A DNA stretch of 64,000 bases from Candidatus Micrarchaeota archaeon (GTDB taxonomy: Archaea; Micrarchaeota; Micrarchaeia; Anstonellales; Bilamarchaeaceae), in the NCBI GenBank assembly GCA_040754495.1, contig JBFMCO010000022.1, forward strand, positions 18,233-82,232, given 5' to 3'. Below the pieces are notes generated by a model, which saw nothing but the letters and a program-made list of their open reading frames with translations, was not told where the DNA came from and did not search any database. The position numbers were made by a program, and so were the translations under genes. Below, piece after piece: positions 375 through 44,586 of the stretch (its first letter is position 1; each line of letters begins with the position of its first letter).

Positions 375-540
375 GGGCCCATAGCTCAGCTTGGTAGGGG
401 GGCCGCTCTTATTATAAGAGAGGCCTCGCCGTAAGCGACGGACTCTTATCTTTTGGAAAGGCACTTACAGCCCGTTTTGGGCCGCCTTTTCCCAAAAGGC
501 GGAAATCCGTGTGTCGAGGGTTCAAATCCCTCTGGGCCCG
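375..540 (+). tRNA. tRNA-Lys(CUU) with two introns (about 398-433 in the D-arm, 449-504 at canonical 37/38)
   Basis: Acceptor GGGCCCA/TGGGCCC. D-arm GCTC-AGCTTGGTA-G[intron]AGC. Anticodon stem ACGGA/TCCGT with loop CUCUUA[intron]A. T-arm GAGGG-TTCAAAT-CCCTC, discriminator G, no encoded CCA. Splice boundaries are ambiguous by 1-2 nt. Confidence 0.75.
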
Positions 541-541
541 T

Positions 542-564
542 CCCCTTTTTTAGTAAAAAAGGGG
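542..564. terminator. perfect 10-bp inverted repeat with T/A runs directly after tRNA-Lys
   Basis: CCCCTTTTTT-AGT-AAAAAAGGGG. T-run on + strand, A-run mirrored. Plausible transcription stop for the tRNA. Confidence 0.45.
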
Positions 565-31685: not shown

Positions 31686-31777
31686 GTTTCTTTTTCCCTT
31701 ATTTTTCCCTTTTCTCTATTCTTCAAGACCCTAGACCGGAAACTGGAAACCGCAAGTCATACCTGAGGCCCGGGAGT

Positions 31778-34700
31778 TCACAGGAAATCGGACAGCCCCA
31801 TCTGCTTGACCTTGTCGTCCTCGAATATGCTCTTTATCTCCCGCTCGACAAGCACCAGCCTCTGCTTCAGGTAGGAGGGAAGGTCGTAGCGGTCGCATAT
31901 GTCGCGGGATATCTCCAGGTATTTCTCGATTCCGCCCTTGTTGATTGTGAGGAGGAGGTTGCCCCCGCAGCGCGCGCACTTGCCCGCCAAGGGCACCCTG
32001 CGGAAGATGGTGTTGCACGAGACGCAGCGGAAGGTCTGCCTTGAGAAGGAGCGCAGGTTGCCGTAGAGGTCCGGGATGAAATGGCTCAGTATCAGGCGCT
32101 CGGCTGCATCGCGCCTATCAACCGGGCGGAGGCGGCCCTGGAGCCTGAACTGTATGTCTATCTTGTCCGGTATGGACTGCAGCTCCACGTAAGCCGTCCG
32201 TATGTTCCCGACATCAAGCGTGCCGCCCGGATGCGTGATGGGAAGCTCGTACTGCTCGTCGGTCCCCAGGACGTCCTTCACGGTCTTGAGCTTCACCTCG
32301 CCCGGCGGCGCGAAGCGCTCCGCGGCCTCGTAGAACTCGAGGGGGTAGCGCGAGACGATTTCGATGCAGTGCGCCTCGTCGTCCACCTCCTTGGGGTTTA
32401 TCTCTATGGAGAGCACGAGGGGCGCGTCCATGGTGCCCCCGCGCTTCTCGTCGAGGAACCTGCGGGAGAAGTTGATGAGGGCGTCCATCAGGAGCATCAC
32501 GCAGTCCTCGTCGCCGTCGCACCGAATCGTAAAGACCTGGTTGTTCAGAAGAACATTCTTTTCTTCCAGGGATTGGCCTTCCACATCGAGGCAGTATGCC
32601 GGAACTCCGTCTGTGAATTTCTCAATCGACCTGACCTTATCGAAAATATAGTCGCTTTGAGGCACGACCGTGAACAGCTTATTCTGGTATTTGATAAATC
32701 GCGCATCGCTCGACAGACCGTTTCTTCTCAGTTCGGACATTCGTTCTGCCTTATGCTTCACAGAGGGCGCGCAGATATTTGCAAAGGCATATAGGTCGGT
32801 GCCATAAAGACTAATGAATCTCTGCGAAAGCAAACGCGGGGTTTTTCCGAGCTCTTTATACCTTTCAAGGACCTTTTTGCCAGGCAAACGCGGTTTGGTT
32901 TTGCCATACCTGCAGAAGATTCCAAATCGCAAAAGCAGCGTGCCGAAATCCTCCAAAAGATTTTGTGAAACGGAGTAGAAGTGCATTCTCGGGGGGGTGG
33001 CGATTACACTTCCATCTCCGTCAAAATAAGCAGAAATAAAGGATTTGACAAGACGGTCAGGCAGTGAAAAGACGAGATTTGGAACCCGTTTCGTGTAGGC
33101 ATTTGAGCCGGTCTTCAAGACTTTATCAAACAGAAGGTGGATTATCCGGCTGCACATTGTTATCTGAGTGCCGTTCTCGCCAAGATAAGGGTTCGTCATA
33201 AAAACGCTTTTGATGGCGGCAATAAGCCGGTTCTGCATTATTTTATTGCAAACCCTGAAGCTGACCTGATAACACGAAGGGCTTCTCCGTGCATACCCCT
33301 CTGAGACGAAGTAGCCGAGAATGAGCATCAGGTCCTCATCTATTGGAATTCTTACCGGCAGCCCCAGGTTATCTCTCTTCATGGCAATTTTTGCATCCAT
33401 GGGCAAATCCTCAAAATTGCACACCCCCTCTTCCACAAGGATTTCGAAATGGGAGAGTGGAACGCGTCCATACCACCTGCTCGGAGTCCGTCTCTCGATT
33501 TTGTTGAGCGGCAGGATTCTGAGCAGCAAATCGCGATGATTATAGAATATTTTCTTGAAAAAATCCTTCGAGCGAAGTATTATCGCTTCTTTTTCTTCCT
33601 TTTTTAGTGGAGATAGGGCCTTTGCAAGATTGAGCACGCGGGAGTCGTCTATCGTGTGCGGATTGAATTTTATGCAAACTGGCAGATCGGAGCCTTCAGT
33701 CATATCTTTTGCCTGAACTGCGCTAAGCGCCCCTTTGTTGAGGCAAAGAATATTATGGTCGGGAGTCACGGTAATCTCCCGGTGGGTGGTTGTCGTAAGC
33801 TTAATCCATTTATCGGGAGCCTTTGCTCTGATGAAGCATTTGATTTTTTTACGGATTGTTTTGTGGGATTGGAGGTCTATTCCGAATGAGTAAAGAGTTC
33901 CGGGAACTTCCACTTTTTCTGTATAAGCATCAAGCCGCTTGACCCTGTCGGGGTATTTGGCAAACATTTCTTCGGTAACATCGCCCAGTGCCCTTTTGAT
34001 ATATTTTTTCTCGTGCTCATCAAATATGATAATCTCGGTTGCCGGATGGAAGCAGTTCCTTCTCTTCGCCGTGTGGAAATACGGGTGGCCGTAGCCGACG
34101 TTGGCCTTGTTGAAGCCCACGATGCGGCACAGGACGCCGGCGCTCGTGTGCGGCGAGAGCCCGACTGCCAGGTGGCCTATCAGGTCGTCCTTCGACTTCA
34201 CGTTGTAGAAGGGCTTCATGCCGTAGAGGTTGATTAGCATGTCGTCGATGAAATCCGCCACACGCATGAAGTACGCGGCGCCGTTCTCGGAGAGGACGAT
34301 GTCCTGGTGCCGCAGCGCCAGCGTCTGGGAGCCGCTCTCGAGGGGCTTGCCAAGATAATCCACGGCATAACCGAGCGCCCTGGCCCTATCGAGGCTTATG
34401 CCCACCTCGTCCGGCGTGAAATGCGTGAGCGGGATGTCTGTCGCGTCGAAGCGGGAGGTGCCGTCCCTGAAAACGTAGACGTCGTGCTTTGCGCGGAGGA
34501 AGCCCTTCTCCAGCCGCTCCGGGATGCGGATGGTGTTCGAGAGGCCCTTCACCCCCTTCACGTCTTCCGGGGAGCTCCCCACCCGGTCCTTCACGCGCTC
34601 GAAGAGCTCCATTATGTCTACGGGCCTGCGGTCGTAGGAGAGCGTCTTCATCTCGCAGTGGATTTCGTACTCGCAGATGCGGCCGCACTTCTGGCATATC

Positions 34701-36658
34701 CGCTCCTCGGCGGCCCTGCCGCCGCAGACGTCGCAGCGCCGGTAATAGCCGAGGCGGCGGCATTTTTCGCATCGCAGCCTGGCGAGCTCCAGGTTGATCG
34801 TCTTCTCGCCCTCGGCACCCCTGAGGGCACGGTGGACCTTGCTCAGGCTCCGGTTCTTGAACGAGCCGGTCGGGAAGAGGACGTGCGGCGAGCCGTCCAT
34901 CTTCCTTTCCTTTGCCTTCTCCGGCCTGCCCATGCGCGCTCCTATATAAGTAGGAGCCTTGGCCTTGATGCGTATCTGGGAGGCCGCGTTCACGATTTCG
35001 AGCGCGCCCTTTGCGGCATCGTATGCCGCTTCGAAGCGGGAGAGGTCTATGCGGCCATCCGAAAGCGCCCCCAGCGAAGAGAGGAGCGCGTACGCGTCGT
35101 CGCCGTCAAGGATGACATTCCCGTCGTGCACCCTGTGCTCCGCGAGGAGCTCCTCCAGGGCCCTTTTCGCAGGCGATGGCGGAAGGACGAGCGAGCGGAG
35201 CCTGCCATCGTGCATCTCCAGCTTCCCGCCCTTGAGCCAGTCCGCCAGGGATTTGAGCTGGTCCGGCGACAGGTCGTGCCAGTGGAATGTGTAGCGCGGA
35301 TGTAGAGGCACGCCATGCGTCCGCGAGAATGCAAAAAGCCCCGGCGCGTCCATGGCGGCAGGAGGCTGGACTCCCTTGGATTCGAGCTCGCGCTCCCACC
35401 ACTCTTCGCAGTAGCCGGATGGCATGAGGGGGTGGTTGGACTTGTGGAAATCGCCGTACGTGCAGAGCAGGTCGCCCAGGAAAAGGATTTCTTCCACCTC
35501 GTCCTTGATGCCGTACGACTCCTCCAGCGTCCGCACCTTCATCACGCGCCCGCTTTTGAGCTTCACGACCGGCGGCTCGAGCCCCTCGTGCGCCGCGACC
35601 ACGCAGCCCTTCCCGGGGCGCTCTATCTTCATGTGAGTCCCGTAGGCCAGGAAGTTGTCGAGCAGTATCATCGTGGCAGGATGGACGTCCTTGCCCATGA
35701 GGCAGGTGGTCTTGCTCCTGCCGTAGCGCAACCGGAACCCGCCCTTGGCCGAAGGGTGGCTGAAGACCGGCCTCCCCGCTACAAGCCCTTCCATGTAGGT
35801 CCAGTCCGGCTTCACCTCGACCTTGTCCGCCTTTTTCTTTATCTTGATGATTTTCTCGAGCCAGTCCCAGCCCAGCTTGAGCTTCTTGGCGTATTTGAGG
35901 AGCTTGGCGGCCTTCGCTGCCACGCCCTCGCACATGACGAGGGGCACGCCGCCGCGCACGCGGTCCGTCTCCACTCCCGGCACCCCGCGGTAGGTCGAGA
36001 CCTCGATTTCCTCGGTCGGGTCGCCGTCTATGCAGACCGGGCAGTTGGATGCTATCACGCGCACGTCGTCCTCCGGCGGCATGTACTGGAGGTGGGTTAC
36101 GCGCGTCTCGTATGTCGTTACCTCCTCGTAGTATCTTGCAATCTGGGAGTCCGTGGCGCGGTAGTCCCCCACGCTGCATACGCGGCGCGCGATGTCGGCA
36201 AGCACCAGGCTGAGGGCGGCCGCAGTGCCTCCTGCGCTCCGGATGGGGCCCGCATAATAGACCGCCACGTAGTCGCTCCCGTCCGGGTTGCGCTTTATCC
36301 TCACTTTCGCTATGCCCTCGGTCGGGGCGACCAGGACGCCCTCGGTGAGTATGCCGAGGCCCGTCCTCACCGCCTGTTCGATGAGAAGCTCCTTGGACGC
36401 CTTCATCAGCTCGCCGCCGGCGATTTTGCGTGCGATTTCGAACGCGATGTCCTCGCGGCCCATGCCACCTTTTTCCATGTCCCGGATGAGATCTGCCACT
36501 CCGGGGGGGCCGACGATACCCTCCACGCGGGCGGCGATGTCCTTGGCTATCTTGACTTCTATGTCGTCGCTCGGGTCATAGCCGAGCCTCCTTGCCTCTG
36601 AGGCGACGGCGTATGCCTTCTGCAGCCCCTCGCGGAGCGTCTCCACATACTCTCCCAT
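31778..36658 (-). CDS. polC: DNA polymerase II (PolD) large subunit DP2, interrupted by one intein
   Basis: 1,626 aa. Zn-finger run CEKCRRLGYYRRCDVCGG...CQKCG. Catalytic region GHPYFHTAKRRN|C...|CDGDEDCVMLLMDALINFSRRFLDEKRGGTMDAPLVL, which is contiguous in intein-free DP2. Confidence 0.9.
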   Translation of the reverse strand: MGEYVETLREGLQKAYAVASEARRLGYDPSDDIEVKIAKDIAARVEGIVGPPGVADLIRDMEKGGMGREDIAFEIARKIAGGELMKASKELLIEQAVRTGLGILTEGVLVAPTEGIAKVRIKRNPDGSDYVAVYYAGPIRSAGGTAAALSLVLADIARRVCSVGDYRATDSQIARYYEEVTTYETRVTHLQYMPPEDDVRVIASNCPVCIDGDPTEEIEVSTYRGVPGVETDRVRGGVPLVMCEGVAAKAAKLLKYAKKLKLGWDWLEKIIKIKKKADKVEVKPDWTYMEGLVAGRPVFSHPSAKGGFRLRYGRSKTTCLMGKDVHPATMILLDNFLAYGTHMKIERPGKGCVVAAHEGLEPPVVKLKSGRVMKVRTLEESYGIKDEVEEILFLGDLLCTYGDFHKSNHPLMPSGYCEEWWERELESKGVQPPAAMDAPGLFAFSRTHGVPLHPRYTFHWHDLSPDQLKSLADWLKGGKLEMHDGRLRSLVLPPSPAKRALEELLAEHRVHDGNVILDGDDAYALLSSLGALSDGRIDLSRFEAAYDAAKGALEIVNAASQIRIKAKAPTYIGARMGRPEKAKERKMDGSPHVLFPTGSFKNRSLSKVHRALRGAEGEKTINLELARLRCEKCRRLGYYRRCDVCGGRAAEERICQKCGRICEYEIHCEMKTLSYDRRPVDIMELFERVKDRVGSSPEDVKGVKGLSNTIRIPERLEKGFLRAKHDVYVFRDGTSRFDATDIPLTHFTPDEVGISLDRARALGYAVDYLGKPLESGSQTLALRHQDIVLSENGAAYFMRVADFIDDMLINLYGMKPFYNVKSKDDLIGHLAVGLSPHTSAGVLCRIVGFNKANVGYGHPYFHTAKRRNCFHPATEIIIFDEHEKKYIKRALGDVTEEMFAKYPDRVKRLDAYTEKVEVPGTLYSFGIDLQSHKTIRKKIKCFIRAKAPDKWIKLTTTTHREITVTPDHNILCLNKGALSAVQAKDMTEGSDLPVCIKFNPHTIDDSRVLNLAKALSPLKKEEKEAIILRSKDFFKKIFYNHRDLLLRILPLNKIERRTPSRWYGRVPLSHFEILVEEGVCNFEDLPMDAKIAMKRDNLGLPVRIPIDEDLMLILGYFVSEGYARRSPSCYQVSFRVCNKIMQNRLIAAIKSVFMTNPYLGENGTQITMCSRIIHLLFDKVLKTGSNAYTKRVPNLVFSLPDRLVKSFISAYFDGDGSVIATPPRMHFYSVSQNLLEDFGTLLLRFGIFCRYGKTKPRLPGKKVLERYKELGKTPRLLSQRFISLYGTDLYAFANICAPSVKHKAERMSELRRNGLSSDARFIKYQNKLFTVVPQSDYIFDKVRSIEKFTDGVPAYCLDVEGQSLEEKNVLLNNQVFTIRCDGDEDCVMLLMDALINFSRRFLDEKRGGTMDAPLVLSIEINPKEVDDEAHCIEIVSRYPLEFYEAAERFAPPGEVKLKTVKDVLGTDEQYELPITHPGGTLDVGNIRTAYVELQSIPDKIDIQFRLQGRLRPVDRRDAAERLILSHFIPDLYGNLRSFSRQTFRCVSCNTIFRRVPLAGKCARCGGNLLLTINKGGIEKYLEISRDICDRYDLPSYLKQRLVLVEREIKSIFEDDKVKQMGLSDFL
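32522..34054 (-). mobile_element. intein (511 aa) with LAGLIDADG homing-endonuclease domain in PolD DP2
   Basis: Starts CFHPATEIIIFD after KRRN. Block B ITVTPDHNIL. LAGLIDADG motifs LILGYFVSEGYA and FISAYFDGDGSV. Block F-like AYCLDVEG. Ends ...NVLLNNQVFTIR directly before CDGDED. Confidence 0.8.
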
Positions 36659-37996: not shown

Positions 37997-38165
37997 GGGC
38001 TCGTAGCTCAGCATCTTGAGGGAAAAGCGCCTAACAATGGGTTTTGGCCCAGCTTTTCCCAAAAGCTGGAAGCAGAGCACTCGCCTTGCAGTTTCCTCGA
38101 AACCGGAAACGGGAAACAGGAGACCGGAACGCGAGGGGCCGGGGGTGCGAGTCCCCCCGAGTCCA
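37997..38165 (+). tRNA. tRNA-Ala(UGC) with two introns (about 38012-38065 in the D-loop; 38091-38129 at 37/38)
   Basis: Acceptor GGGCTCG/CGAGTCC with G3:U70. D-arm GCTC-AG[intron]CTGGAAGCA-GAGC. Anticodon stem CTCGC/GCGAG, loop CUUGCA[intron]C. T-arm GGGGG-TGCGAGT-CCCCC. Discriminator A, then a T-run. Confidence 0.7.
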
Positions 38166-42853: not shown

Positions 42854-42959
42854 CCCCAGCCTTTTTATAATCGGAATCCTGGCCCCGGAGAAAAAGGCTA
42901 GGGTTAACCCAAAAACCAGTTTCTCGGAACCCTGAACCCGAAACGGGAAACCGGAAACA

Positions 42960-42996
42960 GGATGCAGGAAAAAAATAGCGGGGGGTAGATTTGAAC
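42960..42996. repeat. 37-bp direct repeat, copy B (overlaps the intact initiator tRNA 3' end)
   Basis: Identical to 42817-42853. Covers tRNA positions from the T-loop to the discriminator (42976-42996) plus 16 nt downstream of the tRNA. Confidence 0.8.
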
Positions 42997-43080
42997 TACC
43001 GGTCCCTGGGTTATGAGCCCAGTGGGAACTCCAAGCTTCCCATAGGGCAAATTCTAGATGTTAGAATTTGTTACCCCGCT
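42976..43080 (-). tRNA. initiator-type tRNA-Met(CAU) with one intron (about 43042-43071) between position 9 and the D-stem
   Basis: Minus strand: AGCGGGG-TA-[ACAAATTCTAACATCTAGAATTTGCCCTAT]-GGGA-AGCTTGGAGT-TCCC-A-CTGGG-CTCATAA-CCCAG-GGACC-GGTAG-TTCAAAT-CTACC-CCCCGCT-A. A1:U72 and three G:C pairs next to the anticodon loop are archaeal initiator hallmarks. Confidence 0.75.
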
Positions 43081-43221
43081 TTGCTTGGAGCACTTTAACC
43101 CAGATTGTCCTAACAGAAGTCAGAACGAGAATAATTAGCGGGCTAATGCTTTATAATGGTGATTGAAATTCAGGCGCTAGATGAAGTAAAAGAGAAAGAA
43201 GGAGAAAAGGGAGGAAGAAAC

Positions 43222-43812: not shown

Positions 43813-44586
43813 TTAGGATAAAGTAAAATAAATCCTCCTGTTGTCCTTCCCCTTGTTGTCGAGACGGAGTATGGCTATCCTGCCTACCTCCGCAAGGCTC
43901 CGCACGTGAGTCCCGCCGTCCGCCTGGACGTCTATGCCGGGAATCTCGACGATGCGAAGCTCGCTTATGGATGGCGGCAAAGCGCCTGCAAGCTTCACGA
44001 CGCCAGGTATCTTCATCGCTTCCGCGCGCGGAAGAGTATAGACCTTGAGCGCTGCGCCGCTTGAGAGCGCGTCGTTCGCCTTCCGGACGATTTCCTCGAA
44101 TTGCGGGCGGTCGAACGAAGCGAGGCTGAAGTCGAAGCGCGCCTTGTCCTCCTCGAGCTGATTTCCCGTAATCAGCACGCCGAGCTCCTTGTACATGGCA
44201 GCTCCGAGCACGTGCGCTGCCGTGTGCATGCGCATGAGCTTGTAGCGCCGCTCCCAGTCTATCACGCAGCGGACATGGTCGCCGGCCCCGAGTTTCCAGT
44301 TCCCGGTTTCGTCTTTGGGTTCAGCGTCCAGAAGGTGGACGATTTGGCCGTCTTTCTTGAATACGTCCACGACACTGAACACGGAACCGGGAGCGGGCGG
44401 CCCTGCGCCGGAGACCGGCTGCCCGCTGCCGGAAACCAGCGCGATGCTGCCCCGGTCGGCAGGCTGGCCGCCGCCCCTCGGATAGAACACGGTCCTGTCG
44501 AGGACGACCTCCTTGCCGCTCACCGACAGGACCTGCGCGGCGCACTCGCGCATGTAGCTGTCATCGAGATAAAGGGCCTGGCTCAT
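43813..44586 (-). CDS. alaX: alanyl-tRNA editing protein AlaX-like
   Basis: LYLDDSYMRECAAQV...VVLDRTVFYPRGGGQPADRG, MRMHTAAHVL (HxxxH), ADGGTHV. Length matches AlaX-M type. Confidence 0.75.
   Translation of the reverse strand: MSQALYLDDSYMRECAAQVLSVSGKEVVLDRTVFYPRGGGQPADRGSIALVSGSGQPVSGAGPPAPGSVFSVVDVFKKDGQIVHLLDAEPKDETGNWKLGAGDHVRCVIDWERRYKLMRMHTAAHVLGAAMYKELGVLITGNQLEEDKARFDFSLASFDRPQFEEIVRKANDALSSGAALKVYTLPRAEAMKIPGVVKLAGALPPSISELRIVEIPGIDVQADGGTHVRSLAEVGRIAILRLDNKGKDNRRIYFTLS

Follow-up and report, generated by a model that had tools for sequence, protein, structure and literature searches.

A palindromic module at the termini of tRNA introns in Micrarchaeota as the possible end of a small mobile element

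Two tRNA genes in the window, which is the whole 64-kb stretch of DNA analysed here, each carry an intron that ends in the same 31-nt hairpin module, and this module is tied to tRNA introns and is no generic repeat. Alignment of its copies establishes a family of introns with a recognizable membership, termini at the predicted splice junctions, a covarying stem and a distribution centred on the tRNA genes of Micrarchaeota. The reading favoured here, to which a probability of roughly 0.6 is assigned, is that the module forms the palindromic end of small non-coding mobile elements, which would exist as EndA-spliced tRNA introns of the BHB type, and that the hairpin would serve the propagation of these elements at the DNA level. 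The question of how the tRNA introns of archaea reach further genes and positions has stood open since 2008-2010, and a 2014 review describes the mechanism of their transposition as 'still unknown' (PMC4090602). A family whose ends are sharply defined offers a concrete handle on how such introns move; this handle rests on the inverted repeats, on the presence of full-length and deleted forms, on strict, DNA-style palindromes and on module copies in one further type of RNA gene.

The two copies of the window lie in tRNA-Lys (GTTTTGGGCCGCCTTTTCCCAAAAGGCGGAA) and tRNA-Ala (GTTTTGGCCCAGCTTTTCCCAAAAGCTGGAA) and are identical at 26 of 31 positions, as the first-pass annotation had reported; re-reading of both coordinates and a new alignment gave the same result. 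The five mismatches fall on module positions 8, 11, 12, 26 and 27, and four of them form two compensatory double changes, 11/27 from G-C to A-T and 12/26 from C-G to G-C, both of which keep the hairpin, so that the compensatory exchange proposed earlier for positions 11-12 and 26-27 holds. The stem had been described as 7 bp around a CCC loop; stem and loop are indeed present, but the stem comprises 9 bp (positions 9-17 with 21-29). Folded alone, the hairpin is predicted to have an energy of -12.6 kcal/mol in the Lys copy and of -11.3 kcal/mol in the Ala copy, and the copies score 56.6 and 53.4 bits, respectively, with a covariance model of the module. A search of the 64-kb window with a degenerate pattern and up to three mismatches recovers these two copies only, with 0.00 expected from shuffled sequences. 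In the Ala copy, the 5' arm CCAGC repeats the end of the exon, ..TCAGC, right before the 5' splice site. Both introns can also be aligned in their 5' halves, with a score that was reached by 30 of 5000 shuffles (better than 99.4%), and the whole Lys and Ala module introns are therefore considered homologous. The coordinates of all features are listed in Table 1.

Table 1. Intron-bearing tRNA genes of the window, their introns and the parts of the module.
Feature	Position	Strand	Description
tRNA-Lys(CTT)	375-540	+	two introns; exons 375-397, 434-448, 505-540
Lys intron 1	398-433	+	36 nt, D-stem 22/23; other intron family, without module; homologue in L080
Lys intron 2	449-504	+	56 nt, canonical position 37/38; 5'-truncated 'R-type' member of the module family
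Lys 5' remnant CTTTTGGAAAGGC	450-462	+	inverted module core (CTTTTGGGAAAAG) in degenerate form
Module copy 1	474-504	+	GTTTTGG 474-480, N 481, hairpin 482-502, AA 503-504
Hairpin of copy 1	stem 482-490/494-502, loop 491-493	+	loop CCC; 3' splice site directly at the last base of the copy
tRNA-Ala(TGC)	37997-38165	+	two introns; exons 37997-38012, 38072-38090, 38130-38165
Ala intron 1	38013-38071	+	59 nt, D-loop after position 16; R-type member of the module family
Ala 5' remnant CATCTTGAGGGAAAAGC	38012-38028	+	complementary to core 38052-38068, 17 nt, 82%
Module copy 2	38041-38071	+	hairpin 38049-38069, AA 38070-38071 at the 3' splice site
Hairpin of copy 2	stem 38049-38057/38061-38069, loop 38058-38060	+	
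Ala intron 2	38091-38129	+	39 nt, position 37/38; other family, GGAAAC heptads, without module; missing from the L002 and L003 orthologues

Standard programs perform poorly on these genes. On the raw window, ARAGORN mis-calls a tRNA-Gly inside the Lys gene and Rfam detects the third tRNA alone; together they find one of the three tRNA genes of the window, and the ARAGORN call is wrong. As both tools fail on the intron-bearing genes, the gene models were built by hand and checked by splicing. Removal of 398-433 and 449-504 from the Lys gene restores a canonical tRNA, which ARAGORN recognizes as a 74-nt tRNA-Lys(ctt); its exons are identical to those of locus L080 (loci of the comparison are given as L numbers) and near-identical to the Lys genes of other Micrarchaeota. 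A test splice of the Ala gene, in which intron 2 was cut at 38128 and one extra base was left, was called tRNA-?(Ala|Cys)(tgca) with an 8-nt anticodon loop; in the model, intron 2 ends at 38129, as follows from the rule of a 7-nt loop together with the anticodon stem. Under these models, the stretch 474-504, which had been annotated as Lys intron 2, is only the 3' half of that intron, while the placement of the two module introns at different tRNA positions, 37/38 in Lys and the D-loop in Ala, stands. Since standard tRNA finders miss module-bearing genes, a model of the module would improve the annotation of tRNAs in DPANN genomes. The window, with the genes that flank its tRNA-Ala, is syntenic with the Micrarchaeota loci L038, L002 and L003 at 72-82% nucleotide identity, which identifies it as part of a Micrarchaeota (DPANN) genome. 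An origin in Thermoproteales, which the multi-intron tRNAs might suggest, is rejected by this synteny and by the genome scan described below. The window also contains a second small repeat made of GGAAAC heptads, which includes Ala intron 2, and an ORF of 6841 codons.

The module was sought in bacteria and archaea, with one genome per species, using the pattern GTTTTGG-N5-CTTTTCCCAAAAG, in which 20 bases are fixed and the lower stem is left free. This exact-core scan gave 46 genome loci, 41 of which come from 20 assemblies labelled Micrarchaeota, Micrarchaeia, Bilamarchaeum or 'archaeon', and five of which are strays. The bacterial matches L036, L040 and L041 lack the stem and were rejected as chance matches; L021, from a Clostridia MAG, retains it. 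In metagenomes, the same pattern is found on 38 contigs, about 20 of which are Micrarchaeota-like with the same tRNA-intron context, and the viral contigs that were scanned for it contain no copy. All loci were ascertained through the exact 20-base core, and the conservation of the core is therefore overstated in this set. Covariance model R1, applied at E<0.01 to the window and to 364 kb of Micrarchaeota DNA, matches 68 copies, to which the window contributes just its two. A strict search for acceptor plus T-arm places 38 of the 68 inside tRNA genes; about 22 more, in genes that escape this search owing to T-loop introns, were placed by inspection. At least 60 of 68 copies (at least 88%) are thus located in tRNA genes, and the concern that the module might be a repeat scattered over the genome irrespective of tRNA genes does not apply. 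Six copies are found elsewhere (L009, L042, L045 twice, L028 and L035). The hosts include at least 12 tRNA species (Lys, Ala, Thr, Arg, Gly, Phe, Ile, Asn, Asp, Glu, Val and Cys), and the module introns fall into three position classes, namely the D-loop, often directly after A14 G15, position 37/38 and the T-loop.

The covariation suggested by two copies becomes very strong when more copies are aligned. Among the five bases that follow AAAAG, which are outside the search pattern, four are perfectly complementary to the free N positions in 43 of 43 distinct copies, with stems that include CCGC/GCGG, GCGC/GCGC, CCAG/CTGG, CTCG/CGAG, GAAG/CTTC, CCCG/CGGG, AAAA/TTTT and CCAA/TTGG. These four stem pairs are variable, and each occurs as three to four Watson-Crick pair types. 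Across 67 distinct copies and nine stem pairs, 603 of 603 cells are Watson-Crick, with no G-U pair and no mismatch, in an alignment that was fitted to the R1 model and whose copies are related by descent, so that the cells are not independent events. The covariation score is 0.433, compared with 0.115 in shuffles (reached by 0 of 500) and 0.03-0.1 in slid registers; the tRNA stems of the same loci contain about 10% G-U pairs. In diverged copies, the loop reads CCT, TCC, TTG, ACT or TCCTA, and the T-run and A-run lengthen together. Changes of this kind can also be followed at a single site: orthologues of Lys intron 2 are present in L080, L007, L012, L055 and L058, and the stem is CCGC/GCGG in the window, GCGC/GCGC in L080, despite identical exons, and CCAC/GTGG in L058. 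The added copies thereby support the earlier proposal of a common structured element under selection.

Orthologous introns of tRNA-Ala point in the same direction. Orthologues of this gene were found in L002, L003, L006 and L038, and Ala intron 1 is found in five of five orthologues, with an invariant module and a diverged middle. The module is as invariant as the exons, whereas the interior of the intron diverges with insertions and deletions; this difference argues for purifying selection on the module and would also fit a function as RNA. The introns compared in L017, L024, L010 and L016 share an identical module within one genome and are otherwise unrelated, which could point to strong selection on the module instead of recent copying. 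The comparisons between orthologues show that the terminal module is under strong constraint.

The position of the module within the introns is as regular as its stem. It is always flush with a predicted splice junction: sense copies form the 3' end of the intron and end in N4'-AA directly before the exon, and inverted copies form the 5' end and begin with TT-N4' directly after the exon. About 26 copies are antisense to the tRNA and lie at the 5' intron end. Full-length introns measure about 120-165 nt and have both copies, which form terminal inverted repeats; the conserved interior between them contains two additional hairpins. On the 5' side of this layout, TT is followed by the hairpin N4'-C-TTTT-GGG-AAAA-G-N4, one free base and CCAAAAC; at the 3' end, GTTTTGG and one free base precede the hairpin N4-C-TTTT-CCC-AAAA-G-N4' and the final AA. 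Eight full-length introns, from at least seven different tRNAs and several genomes, can be aligned end to end in the order 5' hairpin (GGG loop), CCAAAAC, nGGCTGTTG, hairpin AAAACCC/GGGTTTT, hairpin ATTTTTGC../..GCAAAAAT, TTAGCAAGTCG, GTTTTGG and 3' hairpin (CCC loop). In nine of ten introns with terminal inverted repeats, whose sequences were read by eye, the variable stems of the two ends differ, so that each hairpin must be self-contained and pair with itself, not with its partner. Two shorter forms accompany the full-length introns. In the R-type, to which the module introns of the window and about 20 others belong, the full 3' module is preceded by a spacer, and ahead of the spacer lies what is left of the top of the 5' copy (CTTTTGGGAA-like), beginning one base past the 5' junction. 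The L-type comprises short introns with a full 5' module, a second copy of the 3' arm, four bases and a further two bases. The module introns of the window are best explained as derivatives of the full-length element, which would have arisen by internal deletion and 5' truncation.

The predicted folds connect this architecture with splicing. In the minimum-energy fold of the Lys anticodon arm, the remnant CUUUUGGAAAGGC pairs with the module core (450-462 with 486-498) in a helix that closes the intron, and a BHB-like loop with a 3-bp central helix and 2-nt bulges is formed beside the anticodon stem; the Ala D-arm is similar and more distorted, and the L-type relatives are predicted to adopt a near-canonical hBHBh' form. 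In eight of nine curated short introns of the L-type, the tetranucleotide that precedes the final two bases is fully complementary, G-U pairs included, to the four exon bases expected for the central helix. In the R-type, module positions 26-29 occupy the place of the central helix, but they match the exon in a mean of 2.5 of four positions, which is near the baseline, and are perfectly complementary to positions 9-12 of the module. When the hairpin is enforced, the fold is 5-8 kcal/mol worse than the BHB-like fold in five of five arms tested. A change of the loop from CCC to CCT is matched by a change of the partner from GGG to AGG in L043 compared with its orthologue L015, and also in L031, and this co-variation supports the helix between core and partner. 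The models thus suggest that splicing would use pairing between the two intron ends in a relaxed BHB. It fits with this that the epsilon2-type endonuclease of Micrarchaeota, described for ARMAN-2, cleaves both BHB and relaxed BHL motifs (PMC3239211, PMC12397907). Three variants of the fold were discarded: a canonical BHB with an exon-intron central helix in R-type introns, in view of the near-baseline exon match; a mirror-image BHB of 5' intron bases and the 3' exon, which was rejected on inspection; and kissing of the GGG and CCC loops, which do not co-vary in L023. The first-pass annotation had considered the hairpin as part of the BHB-like splice motif, that is, as a splicing handle; in the predicted folds, however, the core pairs with its inverted partner instead. 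As the hairpin competes with the predicted splicing-competent fold, it gains no established role as such a handle.

The most serious alternative to a DNA-level role nevertheless places the hairpin, or its four variable base pairs, within the motif read by the endonuclease. The variable 4-bp helix would replace the central helix of the BHB and be followed by the bulge (A30 A31 and the first exon base), as an HBh'/BHL half-site or, alternatively, as a pseudoknot that stacks on the closing helix CUUUUGG:CCAAAAG, and the intron would bring along its own splice signals, functional at any tRNA position. This would account for the presence of exactly four variable pairs at exactly 2 nt from the 3' junction, for the location of R-type positions 26-29 at the central-helix place of a predicted 6x6 internal loop and for their perfect pairing with positions 9-12 and not with the exon bases 32-35. 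L007 has a minimal L-type intron of 42 nt, in which the hairpin follows right after the 5' bulge and is the sole inner helix available; the exon-like conservation of the module in orthologous introns agrees with such a role, as does the acceptance of relaxed motifs by the epsilon2 endonuclease (PMC12397907). A further hint at pairing of the variable stem with splice sites at the RNA level comes from the variable arm, which matches the adjacent exon in two lineages, the Ala D-loop (CCAGC/TCAGC) and Thr-TGT (CTCG/CTTG). However, the 603 stem cells contain no G-U pair, whereas the neighbouring exon-intron helices and tRNA stems do, and the conservation of both orientations means that the RNA differs between them, with loop GGG versus CCC and flank CCAAAAC on the 3' side versus GUUUUGG on the 5' side. 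At the two junctions, moreover, the hairpin would flank the cleavage site from opposite sides, nested folds with an enforced hairpin carry the energetic cost of 5-8 kcal/mol, and the joint lengthening of T-run and A-run favours a full hairpin over a single-stranded T linker. On balance, a role of the hairpin as a splicing signal is regarded as rather unlikely.

Copies outside tRNA genes deserve a separate description. In L009, L042 and L083, two modules placed back to back are enclosed by a CTGA (D') and a GATGA-like (C') box, with RTGATGA plus 11-14 nt upstream and about 12 nt plus CTGA downstream. The host of these copies is arranged like a C/D-box sRNA encoded on the opposite strand and may be termed C/D-box-sRNA-like; an assignment of the L009/L042 region to SRP RNA or RNase P RNA has no Rfam support, and a C/D-box sRNA fits better. 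Tandem units of 28-29 nt that look like the module occur on AT-rich contigs, which encode RNR, a Rab GTPase, an E2-like protein and a kinase. Because such proteins are of the giant-virus type, the look-alike unit was treated as unrelated, and it probably is unrelated to the module.

Intergenic copies (L028, L045 and L073) and the look-alike tandem arrays of the giant-virus-like contigs could be taken as signs of a generic palindromic repeat of the REP or terminator kind. A related proposal would be an intron-borne sRNA with a GUUUUGG site and a hairpin bound by an Sm-like protein, as the succession of GUUUUGG and hairpin resembles an Sm site. Both proposals are highly improbable: at least 88% of the Micrarchaeota copies lie in tRNA genes, which make up an estimated <1% of such genomes, the copies are always at intron termini, and inverted copies would yield an RNA without the U-rich site. 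The module has no Rfam match either; at the gathering score, Rfam returns tRNA matches only, and a threshold of E<=1 adds spurious miRNA-type hairpins and one tmRNA fragment.

The distribution among orthologous genes suggests that the introns have moved. Within tRNA-Ala, a module-bearing intron at position 37/38 is present in L006 only, and a T-loop module intron occurs in L038 and L014 and is missing from the window, L002 and L003. Together with the occurrence in at least 12 tRNAs and three position classes, this presence and absence among orthologues supports the earlier suggestion of intron transposition between tRNA genes; the aligned loci show gain and loss at orthologous sites and a spread among the tRNA genes of one phylum. 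Plain vertical inheritance, by which old introns would carry the hairpin as a neutral relic with neither mobility nor function, does describe the Ala D-loop introns (five genomes) and the Lys 37/38 introns (six), which are clearly vertical across considerable divergence, but it is largely refuted and barely credible as a general account, given the same module and architecture in non-orthologous tRNAs, its presence in a C/D-sRNA-like gene, the different intron content of orthologous genes, an invariant module within an interior that diverges with indels, and compensatory changes that preserve perfect pairing.

The favoured reading of the module as the end of a mobile element can be put together as follows. 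The elements would live as introns in the tRNA genes of Micrarchaeota and now and then in genes of other structured RNAs. At the RNA level, the constant core CUUUUCCCAAAAG would pair with its inverted partner at the opposite intron end and close the intron, thereby placing both splice sites in a BHB-like internal loop beside an exon helix, where a broad-specificity endonuclease of the epsilon2 type would cut. The hairpin itself would be a DNA structure similar to a transposon end, which may be recognized or regenerated during copying of the element; this is the most speculative part. What the hairpin does, at the DNA or RNA level, we infer from several patterns. A role at the DNA level is favoured by its strict Watson-Crick pairing, which contrasts with the G-U content of about 10% in neighbouring RNA helices and tRNA stems, by the conservation of the module in both orientations, by the different stems at the two ends of one intron, by the competition between hairpin and predicted splicing fold and by the copies outside tRNA genes. 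A survey of the window and of about 560 kb of loci detected no transposase, no autonomous element with module ends and no pair of modules flanking an ORF, and the junctions show no target-site duplication of fixed length, with irregular junction repeats of 0-3 nt (A, AG or none).

A bolder version would combine both levels. The introns could then be 'archaeal introners', self-contained mobile elements that make a spliced tRNA intron wherever they insert, independently of the exon, with the 4-bp stem replacing the central helix of the BHB by joining the closing helix in a pseudoknot or a three-way junction, and with the hairpins also acting as DNA ends for a mobilizing enzyme. This combination is put forward tentatively and is considered doubtful; if true, it would supply the missing mechanism of archaeal tRNA-intron transposition.

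The transposition of tRNA introns is known from other archaea. In Thermoproteales, similar introns in different tRNAs and at different positions have been read as intron gain by transposition with an unknown mechanism (Fujishima et al. 2010, Mol Biol Evol 27:2233, as represented in PMC4033280 and PMC4090602). The introns described here share with them the occurrence of similar introns in non-orthologous tRNAs at different positions, as well as gain and loss at orthologous sites. They differ in their host, which belongs to the Micrarchaeota (DPANN) and not to the Crenarchaeota, and, as far as the Thermoproteales groups can be judged from the citing papers, in the 31-nt palindromic terminal module with Watson-Crick covariation and in the terminal inverted repeats of an element of about 150 nt, which is conserved across about 20 assemblies. 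Closer in phylogeny is Ca. Micrarchaeum acidiphilum ARMAN-2, a member of the same phylum whose tRNA genes are highly disrupted by introns (PMC3239211, PMC12397907), many of them at non-canonical positions including the T-loop; the main texts of both papers mention no intron module, no inverted-repeat architecture and no intron families. The phenomenon is thus known; for the module, for tRNA introns with inverted repeats and for intron families in Micrarchaeota, no description was found in the searchable literature, in which Fujishima 2010 is represented by citing papers, and the motif strings of the module do not occur in it.

Among repeats of DNA, CRISPR was rejected as a model: the two copies of the window are 37.5 kb apart, and the regularly spaced copies of L056, L081, L069 and L079 are tandem repeats, since their 'spacers' are identical or absent. 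The module introns have more in common with MITEs and with REP/REPIN sequences, as they are small, non-coding and multi-copy and combine terminal inverted repeats, deleted derivatives and perfect DNA palindromes. In contrast to MITEs, they show no target-site duplication of fixed length, and no cognate transposase was found in the roughly 560 kb and the window. Unlike both MITEs and REP/REPIN sequences, they are nearly confined to RNA genes, from which they would be spliced out, and their termini coincide with the predicted RNA splice sites; REP and REPIN palindromes are mostly extragenic, whereas at least 88% of the module copies are inside tRNA genes. The nearest conceptual parallel is provided by eukaryotic introners (PMC11282704), in which insertion of a DNA element likewise creates an intron by carrying or completing splice signals; in the system described here, however, removal would depend on a protein endonuclease and ligase that act on RNA structure, and the targets are tRNA genes and not protein genes.

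Copies of the 31-nt hairpin module were also found outside tRNA introns. On a contig of 34% GC (L072), a module pair lies directly 5' of a tRNA-Asn(GTT) gene and touches its first base; therefore, the element lies within the 5' leader in this setting and not within an intron. A complete module is also present on a bacterial contig, a Clostridia metagenome-assembled genome from buffalo caecum (L021), where it is located upstream of an open reading frame (ORF). Its stem is perfect (TCTCG/CGAGA) and identical to that of the Micrarchaeota Thr introns, and the copy could reflect contamination, transfer or coincidence.

Coordinates of module copies, module-like arrays and further features of the window
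Feature	Location	Strand	Remarks
Module pair at tRNA-Asn(GTT)	L072:780-900
Module, Clostridia contig	L021:4099-4135
Back-to-back inverted module pair	L009:6017-6089; L042:6036-6112; L083:3575-3652		about 70 nt
28-29-nt unit arrays	L069:1640-1750; L074:1-135, 366-445, 1000-1110; L079:1855-1965; L071		metagenome contigs, 28-32% GC
Perfect 11-bp palindrome	window 542-564		CCCCTTTTTTA-G-TAAAAAAGGGG
GGAAAC(C/G) heptad repeat	window 38091-38129; 42933-42965; 31732-31750; 44292-44310		second small family
Third tRNA gene	window 42969-43100	-	anticodon CAT
ORF, 6841 codons	window 1946-22471	+	one third of the window
ORF, 1626 codons	window 31778-36658	-	conserved in L038 and L002

Four metagenome contigs carry a similar unit, GTTTTGGTAAAGCTTTTCCCAAAAGCTT, of 28 to 29 nt, which is repeated head-to-tail and fills intergenic regions. 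It shares the module's constant bases but is probably an unrelated look-alike. The contigs look like giant-virus DNA because the genes beside the arrays encode a ribonucleotide reductase, a Rab-like GTPase, an E2-like protein and a kinase.

In two lineages of tRNA introns, one arm of the hairpin resembles the adjacent exon. In the D-loop intron of tRNA-Ala, the 5' arm CCAGC (window 38049-38053) repeats the exon bases TCAGC (38008-38012) located just before the 5' splice site, and in the Thr-TGT introns of three loci (L011, L013 and L048), the arm CTCG is similar to the exon sequence CTTG. Both the 5' arm and the exon are thus potential pairing partners of the 3' arm; the resemblance may be due to chance, with p roughly 0.01-0.05 in each case.

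In intron 1 of tRNA-Lys (window 398-433), CTCTTAT precedes TATAAGAG, and this stretch both repeats and complements CTCTTA|T in the anticodon loop of the same gene. A homologous intron is found at the identical position in L080, and Lys genes with a TTT anticodon have no intron at this site, one of them (L012) carrying an unrelated D-loop intron. The palindrome starts immediately past the 3' end of tRNA-Lys (540) and is a possible terminator or processing hairpin.

GGAAAC(C/G) heptads, with seven matches in the window versus 0.04 expected, build up intron 2 of tRNA-Ala; another copy follows the third tRNA gene closely on its 3' side, and two further copies are present elsewhere. The 5' part of this third gene is split by an intron that has its own hairpin (AAATTCTA..TAGAATTT) and lacks the module, and Rfam recognizes only the 3' two-thirds of the gene (30 bits).

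In three contigs (L009, L042 and L083), the inverted module pair is embedded in a conserved block, whose opposite strand reads RTGATGA, 11-14 nt, CTGA, the element, a GATGA-like motif, about 12 nt and CTGA. This box order is that of an archaeal C/D-box sRNA, which would place the element in the D'-C' loop.
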